The notes below the pieces were generated by a model. The model was not told the DNA's origin. It saw only the letters and a program-made list of their open reading frames with translations, and did no database searches. Shown here piece after piece: positions 8,221-61,110 of a stretch of DNA of 64,000 nt. Numbering within the stretch: the stretch's first letter is position 1; each line of letters starts with the position of its first letter. This DNA comes from Leucoraja erinacea (Eukaryota), in assembly GCF_028641065.1 (NCBI RefSeq), contig NC_073411.1, positions 6,572,001-6,636,000 on the forward strand. Reading direction: 5' to 3'. The position numbers and the translations under genes are program-made.

Positions 8221-8876
8221 TTGCTGGTTAATTAATAGTCAAATCTAGAGGTAACAAAGCCATGAACTAAGGTTTCAGTAGCTGATGAGCTAAGGCAGTT
8301 GTGAAGACGGGTGACGCGATGGAAATCGGAAAATGAAGCATTATTGATGGTTTGGACGCTTGTTCCTTAGATCATCTCAGGGTCAAGCAGAGTACTAAGC
8401 GTTCAAAAAGTTCAGCTTGTGTTCGCATTGAGCCAGAGAAAGAAATGGAATCATTGGTCGAGAAACCATTTATGCCGACAGCAATCTTCCCAATATTCAA
8501 TTGAAGTAAAAATCTGACCATTCAGTGCCATACGTTAGTCAGGCAGTTTGACAATTTAATAGTCAATGGAAAGGCAAAAGGAAAATGCAATGAAGAATAA
8601 CTGAGTGTTCTCTGCGTTTGTGTGATACATTTTTCAGATGTCACTGCTACTTGGCAAAAAAAAAGAGAATTAAAAGGTGAAAGTTAGATTGTTGGGTTAT
8701 GACAAGGGGTAACAGTGAAGGTATGGGGAGGGTTGCTGGTGATACTCTGTCCACAACTCATTGGGTAAGAATAACTTTGCTGTACGGTAACTCAGCACTG
8801 GAGAAACATTGGAGGACAGTGAAATGGTCATGTGAGTATACAAAATGGGAACATGAAGGAGTCCTCATAATGTGTT

Positions 8877-9058
8877 CAAGAAGGAACTGCAGATGCTGGA
8901 AGATCGAAGGTACACAAAATTGCTGGAGAAACTCAGCGGGTGCAGCAGCATCTATGGAGCGAAGGAAATAGGCGACGTTTCGGGCCGAAACGTCGCCTAT
9001 TTCCTTCGCTCCATAGATGCTGCTGCACCCGCTGAGTTTCTCCAGCAATTTTGTGTAC
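8877..9058. mobile_element. Penelope-derived perfect palindromic element, copy 1
   Basis: 75-bp perfect arms 8909-8983/8985-9059 around a single G; 14-bp TSD cctcataatgtgtt (8863-8876, 9059-9072). Confidence 0.9.
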
Positions 9059-9094
9059 CCTCATAATGTGTTGCCATTTAAGATGATCATAGAG

Positions 9095-13344: not shown

Positions 13345-14330
13345 TAAGAGCATAATTCCCCTCTTCCATTATAGATGGGGCTCTCACTAGGGTCTCCTTG
13401 ATATCCCCCAGCTCCGCACTTGCTCCCCGTCCCCCTATGCGTAACAAGGACCAAGTCCCCTTGTCCTCACCTTCCACCCCATCAGCTGTCACATACAGCA
13501 TATAATCCTCCAACATTTTCGTCACCTCCAACGGGACCCCACTTCTGGCCACATCTTCCCACCTCTTTCTGCTTTCTGCAGAGACCATTCCCTCCGCAAC
13601 TCCCTGGTCAACTCGTCCCTTCCCACCCAAACCAACCTCTTCCCAGGTACTTTCCCTTGCAATCGCAGGAGCTGCAACACCTGTCCCTTTACCTCCCCTC
13701 CATCCAAGGACCCCAACAGTCTTTCCAGGTGAGGCAGAGGTTCACTTGCACCTCCTCCAACCTCATCTGCTGTATCCACTGTTCCAGGTGTCAACTCCTG
13801 CACATTGGCGAGACCAAGCGCAGGCTCGCTGATTGTTTTTCGCTCAACGCCTCTGCTCAGTCCACCTTAACCTATCTGATCTCCCGATTGCTCCGCACTT
13901 TAACTCCCCCTCCCATTCCCAATCAAAGGCCAAAGGACATTTATTGTCACATACACCAATTGGTGCAGTGAAATTTGAGTTGCCATTTGAGTTTTTAATC
14001 TAACCTTTCTGTCCTGGTCCTCCTCCATTCTCAGTGAGGCCCAGCGCAAATTGGAGGAACAGCACCTCATATTTTGCTTGGGTAGCTCACTTCTCAGCGG
14101 TATGAACATTGACTTCTCTAACGTCAAATAGCCCTTGCTTTCCCTCTCTCTGTTCTTTCCCCTTCCCAGTTCTCCCACCAGTCTTCCTGTCTCTGACTAC
14201 ATTCTATCTCTGTCCCGCCCACTCCCCTGACATCAATCTGAAGAAATGTCTCGACCCGAAACGTCACCCATTCCTTCTCTCCAGAGATGTTGCCTGTCCC
14301 GCTGAGTTATTCCAGCATTTTGTGTCCACC
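13345..14330 (+). mobile_element. Penelope-like element (PLE), GIY-YIG endonuclease region plus 3' end with hammerhead-like core
   Basis: PCNRRSCNTCP followed by FQVRQRFTCTSSNLICCIHCSRCQLLHIGETKRRL (GIY-YIG-like); 3' ctgaagaa...cgaaacgtc at 14238-14265; Rex-type tail inserted at 13925-13996 (TSD aatc). Confidence 0.88.
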
Positions 14331-15564
14331 TCTGAAATAATGACTGGGTGAGCAAAATATCAAGAAACTCGGCATTCACATTGACATTTGGGAGAACCCA
14401 GCTCACAACCATTTAGCCTGGAGAAGCCAGGTCAAGGATTGGTGCAGTTATCGTGAAGAGCCATCAGAAACACTAAGTAGAGATTCAATGGTGAACCAGG
14501 AAGCAGGGTCTGCTGCTGCATCCGCTGGCGCAGTGGGGATGTAGCCACCATCTCCCAAGGCAAGCAACATTGACTAACAGATAGACTCATGCCACTTCAT
14601 TGATAGAATTAATATGCAGTGATTTAACGTGACAGTAGCAGCATTGATACTAAATGTTGGCTCGGGGACAAAAAGCAGTGGTGATGGTGAATAGAGGGAA
14701 TTATGTGATGGTTTTCCTTGGGGGTTTGAAACCACAACCTTGCATTTCAGTTGCGACTGCTATCATTGTGCCTTGGGTTACAAGGTTGGGCGATGTTACC
14801 CAGTCATGTATGTGAAGGGAATTTTGGAAAAAAGAGGAAGAGCAGTTGAACTAAAGGAAAATACTAACTGCACTTTGCACACTCTGTCAGAGGCTTCACT
14901 TCACAAACTTTAGCCTTGATTATTGACCAGTTCCAGGCTCAAACTGTACTGCACATTAGCTGGGGATCTATAGGATGGTTGGAATGATAAATAACACTGG
15001 TAAAATCTGCTTGGTTGATGCAGCACTTTATATATTTGCTGAGGGAAAATCAAATGGATATGATTAAAGCTATTCATCTTGACATTCTCTGGCTTTTAAC
15101 TGTGCACTTTTATCCCTGTAAGCTTTTAAAGTACTGAGGTACACTGTTAGAAGAAAGATTGGATGACTTGGGGGAAAAAAAAATTCTGGGTGAAGCATAC
15201 TCCATTTTATTGTGAGAGGTTTCATGGTACTTTAATTTTTCCATTATCTCAGTTGAACTTGAACCCTGATGGAAAAATTAACAAGAGATATTTTTCAAAA
15301 GTAACATGCTTTTTTAATGTAGTTTGGTTTTACCCATGAATTCTGGCCAAAATCCTGATGGGAACAGTAAAAGAATATATTTGCAACTAAAAATCTCTCA
15401 TCTAGTTGCAAAGTATCATTGAAGATGCTGCCAATTTACTGTAAGCCACATTTAATACGTTTGCTGGTATGATGGTGAATTTGGCAGGAAGCAGATTCAC
15501 TGCTATTGCTACTTGATGCTTGTCCTTGCATTCATGCATGTATTGACTTGGGAATAACTACATA

Positions 15565-22830: not shown

Positions 22831-23017
22831 TGCAGGAAAGAACTGCAGATGCTGGATTTTAGACACAAAATGCTGGAGCAACTCAGAGGGTCAGGCAGCA
22901 TCTCTGGAGAGAAGGAATGCGAGACGTTTCGGATCAAGACCCTTCAGTTTGAAGAAGGGTCTCGACCTGAAATGTCACCCATTCTTGCTCTCCAGAGATG
23001 CTGCCTGACTCGCTCTA
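22831..23017. mobile_element. Penelope-derived fold-back element retaining hammerhead-like centre
   Basis: Inverted arms around gacgtttcggatcaagacccttcag|tttgaagaagggtctcgacctgaaatgtc; 11-bp TSD tactttcattg (22820-22830, 23018-23028). Confidence 0.8.
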
Positions 23018-23793
23018 TACTTTCATTGCATTGATTTCAAAACCCTTGTCTTTGTTTTCCGACGTCTCAACAGCCTTCCTTTCTTTTCAGATCCCTAAAC
23101 TGATTGAGTACAGGCATTTGCACTGACAATTGTGATGCTTTATTATTCACAAAAACTGAACACAATTCATACTCGATTTTATTTCAAGTTGAGCTATTGC
23201 AAAATTAGGCCACTGTGAAATAAGTTGCAGTTTTGTCGATGATTGTTTTGATGTTACGAAGTGGCTGATTATGTATCCATTTTCAAAGGAGCTGCTGATG
23301 TTTGCTTCTGCATCATGTCGGTAAAGAACAAAAGCAAAAGCATGTGTACGCGTGAATTCAGTATGTAAAAGTCTTATAGTATCAGACACAATCTGACAAC
23401 AAGTGTCAGCTGTGAGCAGGAAAGAATTGAGAATGTGGAAAGTAAGTCAGTGAACTAGCATTTGATGGATTAACGAAAATACAAAATACGTATATTGATA
23501 TGTTGGAGAGTTTATTAGCCTCATTATTTTAGATTATTTTCAAGACAATTTACACAAAAATCTATTTCAACATTGTCATGTTCCCAGAAGCAGCAGGTTG
23601 CATTGTGTGCATCTGTAGATAAAAATCCTCTGATCATTAATTTGGTCATAGCTCTTGCAGTGTAATGGAAGAAACAAAAGCAGACTGTTGGACAATAAAT
23701 AAATATAAAAAAATACTGACCCTGAAATGGTGTATTTTACACAACAGTCCATGATACTATTTACAATCCACCTATCTCCGTCCATGCATTTTC

Positions 23794-28118: not shown

Positions 28119-28548
28119 GAATTGAATTGAATTGAATTGAATTCCTTTATTGTCATTCAGACCTTACGGTCTGAACGAAATTTCATGCCTGCAGTCATAC
28201 ATACAATGATACAATAATAAACAACAATAAACACAAATTAACATCCACCACAGTGTATCCTCCAAACACCTCCTCACTGTGGTGGAGGCAAAAAATCTTA
28301 GGGCTGCAGTCTCTTCCCTCCTCTTCTCCCTCTGCGCTGAGGCGATTCCCCACCGGGCGATGGTACAAACAGTCCCGCAGCTCACCGAACCCCGCAAACG
28401 GGCCGGTTCAAACACTGCGGCCCGGGGTGGTCGAAGCCGCCGCACCTCCAGTCCAGCACACGCAGCCGCCGGCCCGCGGCTGAACCCAGGACTCTGGACA
28501 CCGCCGCCAGAATGTTGTCCCAGCCACCGGACCGGATCGCCCTCACGT
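28119..28548 (-). mobile_element. Non-coding GC-rich element with Rex1-type tail
   Basis: (gaatt)n + tttattgtca...gaaatttc is the reverse of the Rex1-like gaaatttc...tgacaataaa tail; CpG-rich body without RT motifs. Confidence 0.6.
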
Positions 28549-28743
28549 GAGTGCCGTTTCTCCCTCGGGCTGGGCCACTCCAGCGGGAGTGCCGTTTCTC
28601 CCTCGGGCTGGGCCACTCCAGCGGGAGTGCCGTTTCTCCCTCGGGCTGGGCCACTCCAGCGGGAGTGCCGTTTCTCCCTCGGGCTGGGCCACTCCAGCGG
28701 GAGTGCCGTTTCTCCCTCGGGCTGGGCCACTCCAGCGGGAGTG
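28549..28743. repeat. Minisatellite, 5 perfect copies of a 38-bp unit
   Basis: gagtgccgtttctccctcgggctgggccactccagcgg starting at 28549, 28587, 28625, 28663, 28701. Confidence 0.97.
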
Positions 28744-29314
28744 GCCCAGCCACTGCCTCAGTAGAACCAGTCCCAACTATGCTCGAAGCTTTAAGTGAAG
28801 CCCATCCTTTGTGTGAAACTGACAGCGAATTCCACTTCAGTACTTTCCGACTGAATCATTTGATGGTGGCTGGTGTTCAAGGTCTGAGCTTCCATTGGAG
28901 CAACAATAACATTCATCTTTGAAGTGGAATGCTGAAACGGGGAACATACAATGGACCCAACAGACAATGGACATGACAAATCAATGGTGCTTCAGTTCAG
29001 CATACAATTATTTAAATGGGCTTTTAGGGTGGCAAGGCACAGCAGCCATTTTATCCCCTTGCACATTTGCTCAGAGTTGTTCCACTGGAAAAGTCACAAG
29101 AACTGAAAGTAAATCATCGCCCCTCACCCTGACTACAGCTTTTGTCATCTTATTGTTCCTACTCAGCCAATGAACCAGACAGCTGAGATTGCCACTGCTC
29201 AATGTGAAGTGGTGCTTTCTGAATCTGACCTTTATGGTTCCTGAGCCACTGATAATATGGAGAAGCAAAGGTGTGCAGAATACCAATGCAAGCTAGGGTG
29301 ATACAGTGGCACAG

Positions 29315-32535: not shown

Positions 32536-33196
32536 GAAGTTCTGGAATGACGAAAGCTGTGGCTCGGATGAAGGGTCAATGATGCCAGGGGGAAGGATTG
32601 GTTTTATTGAATGACCTTTTTGTATTGCACCATTTACAGTAAATTAATGTACAGATATCTCCAAAAAATAAAGCATGGAATTGTTTTGAAAAATAAAAGT
32701 TAAACGCATTGAGTTAACACATAAATGTGAATGTGAATACCAACAAAGTGGCTTGCAATGTTATTTTAGAAGAAATCTTCTCATAAATATCAAATGAAGA
32801 GATTCAGTGGACTGTCTTTATACATTGCAAGACTGGTTTTAGCACAATATGATTTGTAATTGCTCTGGGTTTTATAGAATGACTATCAATTTCAGTAATT
32901 TTTATGTTATTTTCTGTTCCTAAAGCTAAGTTCCCAGTCTTCTCCCATATCACTAAAACACAGTTTTGTATTTATATTCACAATGTGTATTGATTTCACA
33001 TTAAAATATGAACAAACTCTGCACCATTTGATTTTATCTTTTCTGCTGATTACCATAGTGCCATACACATTTGAGAAAAGGGATGCGTTTGATAAATATA
33101 TCTAATTTACAAAATAAGTTGCGCAATTGCTTTTGGGGTGAAGGAACCCTTAGTGTTATTTTTTATGACTTTTAATTTTGTTTCATTGTATCACAG

Positions 33197-33313
33197 CGTA
33201 TACGCCTCCCAACCCTCCATCTGGCACAGGCTACCACCGTTACCAGTTCTTCCTTTACGAGCAACCAGTCAGCAGAACTATTTCACTGGATGAACACGAA
33301 GCAAAGTCCTTAA
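33197..33313 (+). CDS. PEBP4: PEBP4-like internal coding exon (117 nt, phase 1 to 1)
   Basis: tttcattgtatcacag acceptor, gtaagt donor; encodes (A)YTPPNPPSGTGYHRYQFFLYEQPVSRTISLDEHEAKSL with PEBP signature P.PP.G.G.HRY.F..Y.Q; HRYQFF and the ISL segment favour PEBP4. Confidence 0.92.
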   Translation, partial: RIRLPTLHLAQATTVTSSSFTSNQSAELFHWMNTKQSP

Positions 33314-37897: not shown

Positions 37898-38210
37898 AAT
37901 ATACAAAATGTTGGAGTAATGCCCCTGTCCCACTTAGGAAACCTGAACGGGAACCTCTGGAGACTTGTCTCCAGAGGTTTCCATTCAGGTTTCCTAAGTG
38001 GGACGGGCATAACTCAGCGGGTCAGTCTAGAAAGACTGCTGGGTCCCTGGATGCGGGAAGTCTCCACCCTGGAACCCCAGCAGACCTTCCAGTCCAACCC
38101 AAAATGTCACCAATCCATGTTCTCCAGAGATGCTGCCTGACATGCTGAGTTACTCCAGCACTGTGTGTCCTTTTGTAAATTGACCAGAATCTGCAGTTCC
38201 TTGTTTCTAC
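37898..38210. mobile_element. Penelope-derived fold-back element containing a MITE
   Basis: aaaatgttggagtaa|ctcagcggg ... gctgagttactccagca...tctgcagttccttg. Confidence 0.7.
37920..38009. mobile_element. PIF/Harbinger-type 90-bp palindromic MITE
   Basis: tgcccctgtcccacttaggaaacc...ggtttcctaagtgggacgggca with TAA duplicated at 37917-37919 and 38010-38012. Confidence 0.85.
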
Positions 38211-45385: not shown

Positions 45386-45586
45386 GTAGGAAGGAACTGC
45401 AGATGCTGGTTTACACCTATAATAGACACAAAATGCCGGAGTAACTCAGTGTCGGGCAGCGTTTCTGCAGAAATGGAATAGGTGACGTTTCTGGTCGAGT
45501 CTGAAGAAGGGTCTCAACATGAAACATCACTTATTCCTTTCCACCAGAGATGCTACCTGACTCGTTGAGTTACTCCAGCACTTTGT
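45386..45586. mobile_element. Penelope-derived fold-back element nested in an old minus-strand CR1
   Basis: Arms around gtctgaagaagggtctcaacatgaaacatc; 15-bp near-TSD atctgta(t/c)ataatgt (45371-45385, 45587-45601). Confidence 0.8.
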
Positions 45587-45679
45587 ATCTGTACATAATG
45601 TTCTAGGTATGGTCTCCCCAGAGCTCTATGTAATTACAAAAAGAAGTCTGATGCTTGCAGAGAATCATGGAGAGAGACA

Positions 45680-47578: not shown

Positions 47579-47845
47579 CGATTACAGCATGGAATAAAGG
47601 TTTGTAACCAAATATATTCCTGTGACTGTTGGCCCACAGGAACTCCACTAGTTCCGTTCTGAATCTATCCCATTCGACATGTCCATCTTAAACAATGGAC
47701 AATGTTTTTGACGTGGAGATGATAATTCAGTCCCTTCACTGATCTATTGGCAAATGAATCTGAAAATGATCGAGGACAAAGTTCTTCACTTGTTAGATTT
47801 GTCAGACTGTCAGCAAAGATAGAGGCAAGATAGAAAAAATAATAT

Positions 47846-48029
47846 TTAAGAAGGAACTGCAGATGATGTAAAATCGAAGGTAGACAAAAATGCTGGAGAA
47901 ACTCAGCGGGTGCAGCAGCATCTATGGAGCGAAGGAAATAGGCAACGTTTCGGGCCGAAACGTTGCCTATTTCCTTCGCTCCATAGATGCTGCTGCACCC
48001 GCTGAGTTTCTCCAGCACTTTTGTCTACC
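47846..48029. mobile_element. Penelope-derived palindromic element, copy 2
   Basis: 75-bp arms 47879-47953/47955-48029, 1 mismatch. Confidence 0.9.
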
Positions 48030-48054
48030 ATAGAAAAATAGTAAACTTGTAACT

Positions 48055-50019: not shown

Positions 50020-50830
50020 TTCTTCATAAGCAATCCCTTGATCAAGGCTGACTTGCTTCCACTGTTTTGTGGGTTCTGAGGTGGCTGGTGTGTTGGAATC
50101 GCATGCGACTGCCAGGGCAGCTAAGGGATTTCCTCTGCTTATGCAGGGCTTCTGTTAGCTCAAGCTTCCCAATGCCAACCTGAATGCTCCTTCTCCATCT
50201 CAACTGGTCATGAGCCAGGACTCCCAGGAGTTATCGGGGATGTTGCAATCCTTCAAGGAGGATTTGAGTGCGTTCTTGAATTGTTTCTTCTGTTCACCTG
50301 GTTATCTCATCCCCATACTGCAGAGACCTGTATTCTGTCAGGCATCTGAGCCACAAAGATAGACACAATGTGCTGGAGTAACTCGGCGGGTCAGGCAGCA
50401 TCTCTGGAGAAAAAGAATAGGTGACATTTTGAGTTGGAACCTTTCTTCAGAATCTTCAGAATTTCTTTGGAGTCTAAAGAAGGGTCCCAACCCGAAACAT
50501 TACCCATCCTTTTTCTCCAGAGATGCCACTTGACCCACTGAGTTACTCCAACACTTTGTGCCTATCTTCAGTATAAACCAGTTCTTTCCTACACCTATGA
50601 GCCCCATAGCCTCCTGCTGCAGCCACCTGTATGTGTACAGGTCCTTATTGCAGGGGATGTTGGCCCAGAAGAGGACACTGGCTTTGGTTCTATTATCCTT
50701 TCATTGAGTTTGGAGGAGTTGGCAGGATCTTGCCATGGCTTTGAGATGACTGCTATAGGTGGTCCACATTTCCCAATGCAAAAGGAGGCCTGGGATCAAT
50801 GCCATCTTGTAGATCAGGCCTTTTGTGGCA
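50020..50830 (-). mobile_element. RTE-clade LINE 3' fragment (old)
   Basis: Reverse reads PG.QKKQFK..LKSSLK.CNIP..SWESLA.D..RWR; RTE-like agtggaagcaagtca...gaagaa tail. Confidence 0.7.
50353..50595. mobile_element. Penelope-derived fold-back element nested in the RTE
   Basis: aagatagacacaatgtgctggagtaactc ... gagttactccaacactttgtgcctatctt arms; degenerate hammerhead-like cores on both strands. Confidence 0.8.
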
Positions 50831-53145: not shown

Positions 53146-53336
53146 TGATGTGTTCATGCTGGGTATTTGCAGCATCTAAGAAAGATGTTCTCAGTCTGCT
53201 ATCGCTAAAATACAATGTGAACCACTTTGGATTGGGAATCGGGAGCAATCATATGGGAAACAAACCGAGAACGGAAGGATATGTGCAACCCATGTTGAAT
53301 TAGTTAGCAACTCACTCCAGTTTCCAAACAAAGTTG

Positions 53337-53524
53337 TTTAAGAAGGAACTGCAGATGCTGGAGAATCGAAGGTACACAAAAAGGCTGGAGAAACTCAACG
53401 GGTGCAGCAGCATCTATGGAGCGAAGGAAATAGGCAACGTTTCGGGCCGAAACGTTGCCTATTTCCTTCGCTCCATAGATGCTGCTGCACCCGCTGAGTT
53501 TCTCCAGCCTTTTTGTGTACCTTC
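53337..53524. mobile_element. Penelope-derived palindromic element, copy 3
   Basis: 78-bp arms 53368-53445/53447-53524, 1 mismatch; TSD ttccaaacaaa (53322-53332, 53522-53532). Confidence 0.9.
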
Positions 53525-54101
53525 CAAACAAATTTGATTGCTCTCAAAAAGCAGCGAGGAGCTAAATGTCTAAAGATATTTGGAGAAAAAGGCAAATCTT
53601 ACAGCATTTCTCCCCCTAAATGAGTCAGGGTAGTGGTAATAAACCTTCCTGAATGAAGGATAATAATGTTCCAGTTCATGCCTTTGAATTGAGCTTAGAA
53701 TTGAGGAAATTTCATCGCCAGCTTTATTGTAATTGATTCAACGGTATGAACTAGCAACTTCAACAGCTATGCATTAATCAGATCAAAATATCGTCAGTAT
53801 GGCAAGCAGGTTGTAAAAAAACAAACTATAACAAATGGAAGAATTAGTTTCATGCACGTAGAAAGTTTGTTGACTGGTTTCCATCACAATAAATGTCTCA
53901 ATTTTCTTTGATGGTGTTTGTATTGTTGAGAATAAAATTTAACCGAACCAGTTTATGTTCCTGTGATACTCCTCAAGCAGATAAAGATGTCTAAGGAATT
54001 ATTAAATGGAATTACGATTGTGGACTCCTGACTGAAAATCAAACAACAAAGCCAAAGAGGAATGTTTTGCTGATATCGTTTGCAAGCTGAAAGGTTCTGA
54101 A

Positions 54102-54850
54102 GAGGTAGACACAAAATGCTGGAGTAACTCAGTGGGACAGGCCGCATCTCTGGAGAGAAGGAATGGGTGACATTTCGGTTCGAGACCCTTCTTCAGACTG
54201 ATGTCAGGGGAGTGGGTGGGGCAGAGATAGAATGTAGTCGGAGACAGTAATGGCCCTGTCCCACCTAGGAAACCTGAACGGAAACCTCTGGAGACTTTGC
54301 GCCCCACCCAAGGTTTCCGTGCGGTTCCCGGAGGTTGCAGGTGGTTGCCGGAGGTTGCAGGTAGGGAGAGTGACAAAAACCTCTGGGACTCACACGGAAA
54401 CCTTGGGTGGGGTGCAAAGTCTTCAGAGGTTTCCGTTCAGGTTTCATAAGTGGGTACCTATCTCCAATAATAAAAAATAAAAAAATAAAAAAATAAAAAA
54501 TAGAATGGGGGCATTAGACTGGTGGGAAAACTGGGGAGGGGGAGGGGATGGAAGAGAGAGAGGGAAAGCAAGGGTATGTGAAGTTAGAGAAGTAATTGTT
54601 CATACCACTGGGGTGTAATATGAGGTGCTGTTTCTCCAATTTGCGCCGGGCCTCACTTGGACAATGGAGGAGGCCCAGGACAGAAAGGTCAGGTTGGGAA
54701 TGGGAGGGGGAGTTAAAGTGCTGAGCCGCCGGGAGATCAGGTAGGTTTAAGGCGGACTGAGCGGAGGTGTTCAGCGAAACGATCGCCGAGCCTGCACTTG
54801 GTCTTGCCGATATACAGGAGTTGAAACCTGGAGCAGATGAGGTTGGAGAT
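54102..54850 (-). mobile_element. Penelope-like element 3' part (GIY-YIG region + 3' end)
   Basis: Reverse-complement homolog of about 13750-14330; LLYIGKTK..LGDRFAEHL on the minus strand. Confidence 0.88.
54251..54513. mobile_element. PIF/Harbinger-type MITE, longer relative of 37920-38009
   Basis: Same terminal arms; taa/tta flanks; right TIR interrupted by an A-rich (taaaaaaa)n insert. Confidence 0.8.
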
Positions 54851-59185: not shown

Positions 59186-60754
59186 GTGTTTTTCAACAAA
59201 ATTGTTTTACTTTTGGGTTTAATCTGTGAGAAGAACAGAATCCCTTGCTAGGCCCTTGCTTGAGTACATCACCACCGGATTTGGGAAAAGCAGATATATG
59301 CCCAGTAGCATCAGAGGGAAAGTCAACAGCCTCTAAATTCTTTACCCATTTACTCATACAGGATTTGTTCTTTAACAATTTGTAATTTTTGTTTTAGAAT
59401 AGTTTGTTTTCGATACTGGTGCATTGCTTACATTCCCCGACAAGCAGTTTAGTAGGCCTAGACTGAAAAGGCTCTTATCTGAGTTCAGATTCCAACATGG
59501 CAGTTGGCAGAAATTATTATTTTTTAAGTTAGTCGTTGGTAATGAGGAGCTCACAACAAGTGGGTTGTCATAAAAAAACCCATCTGACTCCGTAATATCC
59601 TTCTAGATGAAAATCCGTTAACCTAACATGATCTTGCCAGTAAATGACTGTAGGCCTATTGATGTGATTGAATGGCCTCTCAAATGGCCTCATAACCTTT
59701 AGCTTAAGGGCAGCTAAGGGTGAGCAATACATGATGGCCATGCCTGTTAGGCAGAAAAACAAGGAGTTATTTTTAATTGTTTGGTTAAAGTAACTGTAAA
59801 TGATCACTACAAAAAATACTCTGCATGACAACATGAAATGAAACCTATCTGGATCATTTATCAATGCAGAGATGCCCTCGTCAGTAGAGTATTCAAAAGT
59901 GATTAATATATAACAATTGTACTTGCATTGTTCAAACTAACACTGATTTGGTGTTCCAATGTTCAGGGATGTACGAGTGTACATTTTCAAATGTGGGGTT
60001 AATGCATGAAAATGTTGCTGAGGTAACTTAATCAGACGTGTTCTTATTGAATGGTGGAGCAGACAGGAGGGGTCAAAAGGCCTCCTACTGCTTCTATTTA
60101 TACATTCTTACGTTTCATACTTCATAAACTGTTTCCTCTGGAAATGCTTTTTAGATGAGATTCAGGAAATTGATACTGCAGAAGAATAAACCGACATAGA
60201 AAAGAATTCCATTGTGAGACTGATACTACTGAAGTCATCAGCGTTCGACCAGAGGGAGCTAGAAAGTAAACAAAAAGGCTGGTTCATGAATGAAGTATCA
60301 CATCTTAGAGCTCTCGGGTATTTTGGTGATCACATTATTCTTTTCGAGAATATGTTCTGGTACAAAATGACCAGCTGGGCCATCCATCATGTTTATCACA
60401 TCTGAGACAATGTAACTAGTAAAATTGGACACTTCTGCCTGATACTCAACTGTGCACCCTTCAAGGGCTAACATTTTGATTTCACAACTACCCAAAAAAG
60501 ATGTCTATTTGAAAATTGATTTCACAAAATTGATTTCACAATTTCGCACACTTTATGGATATCTTGTTTTCCACTCCTAATTTCTAGGTAAAATATTCAT
60601 TTTCCCAGGCACCTTCATTCCAGTTTACAACACTATTAAATGATGTAGTTAGCAGCGAAATATAAAAGTTCTTCTGAGGTGAAATGTTCAACCAGACTCT
60701 TAAAAAATGACAGTCTCGACAATTGACCTGTCAGGGTAACTTCTTGCCTGAGGT

Positions 60755-61110
60755 GTTTAACTGCAGATGCTGGAAAATCGAAGGTAGACAAAAATGCTGG
60801 AGAAACTCAGCGGGTGCGGCAGCATCTATGGAGCGAAGAAAATAGGCGACAATCCGGGTCTGAAGAAGGATCTCGACCCGAAACGTCGCCTATTTCCTAC
60901 TCTCCATAGATGCTGCCTCACCCGCTGTCTACCTTCTTGCCTGAGGTTATCTGTTGTCATCCCCGGTTTGTCCTTTTTTTCCCCCTCGCATCCAGTTCCC
61001 CCATCCCCCACTACAATCAGTCTGAAGAGGACTCCCAACCCAAAATGTCACCTCTCCGTTTTCTCTAGAGATGCTGCCTGACCCACTGGGTCACTCAGCA
61101 TTTTGTGTCT
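60755..61110. mobile_element. Composite Penelope-derived element(s) with best-preserved hammerhead-like core
   Basis: Fold-back 60783-60932 with gggtCTGAAGAaggatctcgacccGAAACGTCgcct (core 60860-60887), followed by a second PLE 3' end. Confidence 0.8.

Follow-up and report, generated by a model that had tools for sequence, protein, structure and literature searches.

How does a genome come to hold near-perfect palindromes that differ from copy to copy, yet in such a way that each difference is mirrored in both arms of a copy? The question is raised by three palindromes in a 64,000-nucleotide stretch of Leucoraja erinacea DNA (contig NC_073411.1, positions 6,572,001 to 6,636,000; hereafter the window), which lies on a 15.6-Mb contig of a 2.19-Gb genome.

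Structure and identity of the palindromes

The three palindromes of the original prediction were all found, at centres 8984, 47954 and 53446, each with a single G between arms of 75 to 78 bp. Copy 1 is perfectly paired over 75 bases (a repeat search extends the match to 78 nt at 99%), and the arms of copies 2 and 3, with one mismatch each, are 75 bases (47879-47953 / 47955-48029) and 78 bases (53368-53445 / 53447-53524) long, respectively. The central G sits on the side of the tail in all three, and the three differences between copies that had been described as mirrored are present. What had been taken for a leader common to the copies occurs on one arm only and is the known tail of Penelope-like elements (PLEs). 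The target-site duplications (TSDs) reported for copies 1 and 3 are both there, that of copy 1 being exact over 14 bp and that of copy 3 exact over 11 bp, or 15 bp if one mismatch is allowed, but the prediction had not counted copy 2, which has a degenerate TSD of about 13 bp with a 1-nt slip within an A run. A contig of a related organism (run X3) joins window position 8862 to 9059 and thus represents the empty site, which shows copy 1 to be a genuine insertion that duplicated 14 bp of its target. The RNA fold has an energy of -160.7 kcal/mol (z -29.7), and since none of 200 shuffles is as good, the hairpin is not due to chance; a transcript is predicted to fold into a very stable hairpin.

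Table 1. Features of the window that bear on the palindromes (positions are those of the window)
Feature	Position	Strand	Basis
Copy 1, left TSD, 14 bp; last 5-6 bases also match the AC-rich end of the element	8863..8876	.	Duplication, and empty site joining 8862 to 9059
Copy 1, PLE tail, on one arm only	8877..8908	-	Sequence; tail as defined in the available text of PMC3846280 and PMC11167929
Copy 1, tailed arm (PLE pseudo-LTR end)	8909..8983	-	Sequence comparison
Copy 1, centre: 15-nt near-palindrome (7+1+7) = stem-loop II of a minimal hammerhead, G at 8984; ribozyme 5' half absent	8977..8991	.	
Copy 1, inverted arm without tail	8985..9059	+	Sequence comparison
Copy 1, right TSD	9059..9072	.	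Duplication and empty site
Broken GIY-YIG end of an older sister PLE subfamily; hammerhead motif, tail-less end; decayed frame without Pfam match	13345..14333	+	
Exon of PEBP-family host gene	33193..33312	+	PF01161, E 2e-06
Copy 2, with degenerate TSD of ~13 bp; tail about 47846-47878; older subfamily type	47830..48042	.	
Older two-armed relative; 106-nt arms, 79% complementary, both extending past the hammerhead core	50356..50568	.	
Copy 3, with TSD of 11-15 bp; tail about 53336-53367	53322..53536	.	
Broken GIY-YIG end of that older sister subfamily, with a further small inverted-repeat element inserted in it	54101..54850	-	
Two-armed relative with a different, asymmetric junction (one arm retains the whole hammerhead motif); 14-bp duplication	60740..60945	.	

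Centres as perfect as these could in principle result from faulty assembly or from a polymerase skipping a hairpin. No read or contig spans the loci end to end, and reads were compared for copy 1 only. Against an artefact, raw RNA reads cross the collapsed centre (position 8994 is covered by 69, whereas 1,623 depart at 8991), and the stretch 8941-9000 is also spanned, at a depth of 31, by a 60-nt contig from a related organism, both being evidence on any copy rather than on this locus, and hundreds of longer-spaced pairs were assembled uncollapsed in the same genome. Because collapsed centres are crossed and longer-spaced pairs are intact, a general artefact is unlikely, and as the explanation of the palindromes it has next to no probability.

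The arms belong to a large family. A 34-nt arm core has 50,663 exact matches in the genome and the exact collapsed centre has 1,671, while the hammerhead motif of intact arms, a predicted ribozyme that is half-deleted in copies 1-3, has 18,307. In longer copies of the family, the same arm lies downstream of a frame ending in a GIY-YIG domain (Pfam PF01541, E=0.0016, 19.1 bits, which is below the 22.6 cut-off). The CCHH endonuclease motif, as read by eye against its description in PMC8557442, is present in the translations of three of these copies (L277, L286 and L296), and upstream of the endonuclease L277, L286 and L307 have C-x4-C-x2-C, an instance of the CX2-5CxxC motif in the RT-EN linker that is common to Neptune and Nematis (PMC8557442). 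Of 100 collapsed copies, 95 carry a tail on one side and one side only, and 83 of 92 have a TSD (median 14 bp, range 8-19). A one-sided tail, an inverted truncated copy, a variable TSD and the motif of a minimal hammerhead in the pseudo-LTR are the marks of an EN+ PLE insertion, and the palindromes, rightly predicted to be retro-insertions of a Penelope-like end, are head-to-head stubs of an EN+ PLE with a linker of the Neptune/Nematis type; the clade is a putative one, set by linker type alone from broken C-terminal fragments. A MITE or TIR DNA transposon does not fit the spread of TSD lengths, the asymmetric tail and the unfixed polarity of the centre (see below). Retrozymes have tandem direct repeats, intact hammerheads and circular RNA (PMC7229834, available text), whereas the present arms form inverted repeats that have lost the ribozyme core.

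The two broken GIY-YIG elements of the window (Table 1) have ends that match the arm at about 80% identity. This agrees with the homology originally noted, but these elements are older sisters of the palindromes and not their parent. Five older two-armed relatives (22833-23030, 45390-45590, 931-1092, 50356-50568 and 60740-60945) have the same one-tail plan with differing junctions. PLE stubs are interrupted at two places in the window (54255-54455 and 37915-38007), and also in L113, by insertions of a different small element that has inverted ends, and a tandem repeat array at 28164-28760 has long open frames on both strands. A scan of the window against Rfam gave no match at the gathering score. 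The 264 kb around the window contain three exact collapsed centres, all of them inside the window, and two exact intact arms; this local cluster of collapsed centres exceeds the genome-wide mean (0.76 per Mb), but the numbers are small. Random 10-kb stretches (200 kb in total) held no exact collapsed and no intact copies, too few for use as a control.

Copy 1 lies between two exons of a host gene, named PEBP4 in the original prediction, that, as read from its predicted domain, is a member of the PEBP family on the + strand. One exon is in the window and the other PF01161 exon is about 41.6 kb before it, which places the exons about 75 kb apart; the stretch of the PEBP domain between them was not located. 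A whole-genome profile search with PF01161 gave no match, and the exons were found by motif and confirmed with Pfam. Copies 2 and 3 are beyond the second exon and may be intronic. In a look for A-to-I editing, T>C at position 9001 is seen in 10 of 138 RNA reads compared with about 2% of DNA contig depth, a difference that cannot be read as editing because the RNA reads pool thousands of copies and the DNA is not matched to them.

Origin of the two arms

The layout of insertions was surveyed in the first 100 arms on C1, picked irrespective of their centre and representing about 91 insertions. Relative to the hairpin centre, the 3' ends fall at +71..+79 in 59 arms and at +108..+114 in 33, with 8 elsewhere. 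The 5' ends are at -24..-6, around the 5' half of the hammerhead, in 66 arms; 7 arms start downstream of the centre, and 93 extend 5' beyond the predicted cleavage site. Eighteen two-armed insertions are among these arms, each with one tailed and one tail-less arm, and two of them are collapsed as in the window copies, the others having spacers of up to about 600 nt. For four arms (three loci) there is a candidate tailed partner at a distance of 285-554 nt. The end of the short arm coincides with that of solo tail-less copies.

Several features of individual insertions were also observed. Of the 100 arms (G000 C1:0.1-4.7 Mb, L241-L325), 51 have a 5' end that falls at -24..-15 relative to the hairpin centre, where the hammerhead motif begins; this cluster is a sharp truncation or RNA-start hot spot and not the ribozyme cleavage site. 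At the tail-target junction of L141-L240, the tail is separated from the duplication by 0-8 extra bases that match the AC-rich end of the element, and a few bases of the short arm belong to the duplication as well, such that there is microhomology at both priming ends. L104 (G000:C1:1391341-1392084) is a young two-armed insertion with arms of about 300 bp and a short asymmetric spacer. Arms of the family are found inside other repeats, including older PLE ends, at L103, L106, L120 and L009, with L103 and L106 at the same target position. In L400 and L401 (C23 and C24), a collapsed-type junction is followed by a further partial or complete arm start, which suggests template jumps.

Co-variation of the arms was examined in 81 loci with full arms. 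These were taken from the first 100 listed of the 1,671 exact collapsed centres after 5 loci without a tail, 3 duplicates and 11 loci with short arms had been dropped (a fourth duplicate is among the loci kept). The arms are closer within a copy than between copies (divergence of 3.6% versus 6.3%), and the co-variation originally described exceeds chance, with 18 mirrored non-consensus bases against 1.85 in 1000 permutations (maximum 6) and 12 mirrored alleles found in three or fewer loci against 0.55 expected. When the search fixed a variant in just one arm, the second arm carried it too at 19 of 22 comparable loci (23 were found), compared with 4 of 20 background arms. The three mirrored differences named for copies 1-3 are themselves subfamily markers, as an objection foreseen in the original prediction would have it, but the fixed TSDs of a TIR transposon that belonged to the same objection are not seen.

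Single-arm changes (59 in the tailed arm and 58 in the short arm) outnumber the mirrored ones by 117 to 18, 10 of 15 mirrored allele types recur in other genomic arms, and the duplications are clean at the majority of the 15 loci that carry a mirrored variant. These results suggest that the arms share a template at insertion and drift separately after that; there may be weak conversion as well. The original prediction had offered later homogenisation as one of its two routes, in which gene conversion within the palindrome makes the arms alike after insertion. The interiors of the duplications in collapsed copies are indeed 3.5% diverged (23/652) compared with 2.4% at non-CpG sites of the arms (82/3440), the reverse being true of other pairs (1.1% versus 1.7%). 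The gap is not significant (p=0.10), however, and the excess of single-arm changes, the recurrence of mirrored types, the clean duplications and the sharing of a rare variant by the two arms of pairs separated by 161 nt and by 1.4 kb all argue against conversion, which is very improbable as the source of the co-variation.

The base at the centre shows which arm runs through the loop. In collapsed copies it is on the tail side in 54 loci and on the other side in 37 (the 100 loci minus 5 without a tail and 4 duplicates). Two further junctions, with 30 loci apiece of which 2 lack a tail, give ratios of 18:10 and 14:14, and a 23-locus subfamily set gives 12:11. A palindromic master would yield one polarity only, and so would fold-back of a tailed cDNA since a tail-less cDNA cannot make a tail. 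Mixed polarity is incompatible with a single palindromic master and with plain fold-back, and it agrees with two cDNAs that start from the two cut strands. The three junctions that were counted by exact pattern occur 1,671, 326 and 45 times in the genome, and all are at near-self-complementary spots. The best self-pairing sites of the region are stem-loop II, with a score of 7 and 1,671 junctions, and a site 18 nt further 5', with a score of 4 and 326 junctions; the third site, with 45, is weaker.

Fold-back deserves consideration, as self-priming has been proposed for PLE palindromic junctions (PMC3846280, available text) and the copying of one arm from the other at insertion was the remaining route of the original prediction. 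One cDNA that turned on its own hairpin and copied itself would explain the mirrored variants directly; the tail-side G of all three window copies and the mild, non-significant excess of tail-side polarity (54:37 and 18:10) are in its favor. The opposite polarity is nevertheless seen at all three junction types (37, 10 and 14 loci), and the end of the short arm, shared with solo tail-less copies, is a priming site. Fold-back is thus improbable as the general route, though it may account for a minority of copies. Alternatively, the palindromes could be a self-propagating mini-element, MITE-like or dependent on a non-autonomous master, which would be in keeping with 1,671 exact copies of one centre. 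Such an element is scarcely credible given that centre polarity is unfixed, the collapsed form occurs in every subfamily examined, spacers form a continuum and duplications vary from 8 to 19 bp.

Insertion probably involves two cDNAs from one source that are joined at near-self-complementary spots, with the centre formed partly at insertion and partly by later deletion. The PLE enzyme would likely cut the two target strands about 14 bp apart, and one cDNA would likely start from each cut, one at the end of the RNA tail and the other about 35 nt further in. Both would be copied from the same source sequence, that is, from one RNA twice or from two RNAs of one source, and both would usually stop just 5' of the hammerhead motif. 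Identical cDNA ends could pair only at near-self-complementary spots, where the arms would then join. The best such spot would be the 15-nt stem-loop II, at which the single unpaired base may be left as G or C at random. Some copies likely join there during insertion, and others likely join 10-25 nt further out and subsequently lose the inner hairpin by deletion between two 15-nt repeats, a loss that may be more frequent near chromosome ends. The collapsed products are without the RT gene and half of the ribozyme, and no host function is needed to explain them.

Loss of the hammerhead half and the time of collapse

The original prediction had all three copies collapsing at one point with loss of half of the hammerhead, and this holds: the 5' half of the ribozyme is absent and the centre is stem-loop II. 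With the 5' core lost, copies 1-3 cannot be ribozymes. The prediction also ascribed the loss to a deletion between short direct repeats. The 15-nt stem-loop reads almost alike on both strands, so that a copy with two motifs carries 15-nt near-direct repeats around its inner hairpin. Near-direct repeats that flank a hairpin are a classical substrate for deletion. Since either half of the stem-loop can be used in the deletion, the centre can be G or C, and the observed centres are compatible with such an event.

Position and age bear on when the collapse occurred. On C1, for which alone position data are detailed, the outermost 20 Mb at either end contain 45 of 66 collapsed matches compared with 39 of 110 controls (p=4e-5; 4/25, 20/48 and 15/37 for the three control patterns). 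C1 accounts for 4.0% of the collapsed matches, as against 6.8% of the controls and 7.8% of the genome. Collapsed copies have the oldest tail type more often than other junction types do (54/91 versus 18/56, p=0.002), their tails are more diverged (2.3% versus 1.6%, p=0.02), as are the interiors of their duplications (23/652 versus 4/363, p=0.02), and their share is 3.7% in a young subfamily versus 8.4% overall. The p-values for age are modest and, although several tests were made, uncorrected, and the search patterns of the classes differ in length and CpG content. Divergence between arms, the most direct clock, does not differ significantly at non-CpG sites (82/3440 in collapsed copies versus 28/1677 in others, p=0.10), nor does it differ significantly between terminal and interior collapsed copies (p=0.54). 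In the 18T collapsed set, arm and duplication divergence are as high as in the whole set. The arms are identical in 16 of 80 collapsed copies, and some collapsed copies are 100% identical to copy 1 over 181-185 nt, which indicates that collapse is not only a slow process.

The timing of collapse is likely to be a mixture. Since collapsed copies are older and enriched at chromosome ends, many likely collapsed after insertion, as the predicted deletion between repeats implies, whereas others likely formed their centre at insertion. It is also conceivable that priming is two-ended but that all collapsed centres arise during insertion, through annealing or microhomology joining, in which case the skews would reflect differences in repair between subfamilies or chromatin states. 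Very young collapsed copies with identical arms and perfect duplications, which are found in chromosome interiors too, are consistent with this possibility, as are the non-significant age difference between arms and the hairpin being the best annealing site. Formation of all centres at insertion is nonetheless unlikely, as the arms of two subfamilies and the CAG-A-CTG junction are spread nearly evenly on C1 at genome-average density, unlike the collapsed copies, and four age indicators agree in direction.

A broader reading, which is offered tentatively and is perhaps less probable than not by some distance, is that the thousands of two-armed stubs are an in-vivo record of double-ended PLE integration, in which two cDNAs of one RNP are joined by microhomology, and that conversion to a one-base centre takes place by recombination-linked deletion, through which palindromes become more perfect with time. 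A literature search, which did not extend to most subscription journals or to the PLE reviews of 2005-2006, yielded no report of twin priming in PLEs or of PLE palindromes that collapse in a position-dependent way.

Implications and comparison with known systems

How PLE integration is finished and how inverted copies originate are open questions according to the available text of PMC8557442 and PMC11167929. Centre polarity, the sharing of rare variants and the recurrent junctions provide countable predictions for the existing in-vitro PLE system, and for this PLE family the polarity data argue against the published self-priming idea. If late collapse is true, long palindromes are growing more perfect in a vertebrate genome in a manner linked to chromosome position. 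If the deletion is in addition recombination-linked, the stubs could be used as a genome-wide historical reporter of hairpin-induced deletion in the vertebrate germ line. The near-perfect 75-bp hairpins, at least 1,671 in number, may be a potential source of intronic dsRNA; any host effect, such as the ADAR, endo-siRNA or cruciform roles of the original prediction, is hypothetical.

In twin priming of L1, two priming events take place on opposite target strands and the products are joined by microhomology. The palindromes resemble it in the opposite-strand double priming and microhomology joining that are proposed for them. They differ in that L1 inverts an upstream, non-overlapping part of the RNA, whereas the present family would copy one and the same segment two times, with a fixed start site for each copy.

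A closer parallel is the PLE protein PAc (Poseidon of Anolis), which in vitro cuts both strands and extends them, with uncleaved hammerhead RNA as template and two internal start sites at the limits of the tail (PMC11167929). Cutting and extension of both strands, two start sites that bound the tail and an AC-rich end are common to PAc and the present family, in which the first two are predicted from sequence; the use of uncleaved RNA as template by PAc has its counterpart in the 93 of 100 arms that pass the predicted cleavage site. PAc is a Poseidon-clade element, and the CX2-5CxxC linker seen here is absent from Penelope/Poseidon, so the data are from another clade. Joining of the two cDNAs is not treated in the available sections of the PAc paper.

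Metazoan PLE minimal hammerheads, as described in the accessible part of PMC4209133, occur as dual motifs on opposite strands 100-700 bp apart. Intact arms of the present family are like them in having a CUGAnGA core, a long helix II, GAAA and a palindromic helix III, and copies 1-3 are unlike them in having lost the 5' core.

The structure of the palindromes is the layout already published for EN+ PLE insertions, which consists of a pseudo-LTR, an adjacent inverted 5'-truncated copy, a one-sided tail of 30-40 bp and a TSD (PMC3846280, PMC8557442 and PMC2377424, as far as their text is available); the new part is the statistics on centre polarity, rare-variant sharing, age and position. Head-to-head arms, a one-sided tail of about 32-35 nt, a variable duplication and a palindrome at the junction are shared with the published unit. 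The palindromes differ from it in that each arm is of minimal length (75-78 bp) and the two join within the hammerhead, and whereas PMC3846280 reads PLE palindromic junctions as the result of self-priming, the polarity counts favor two separately primed cDNAs.
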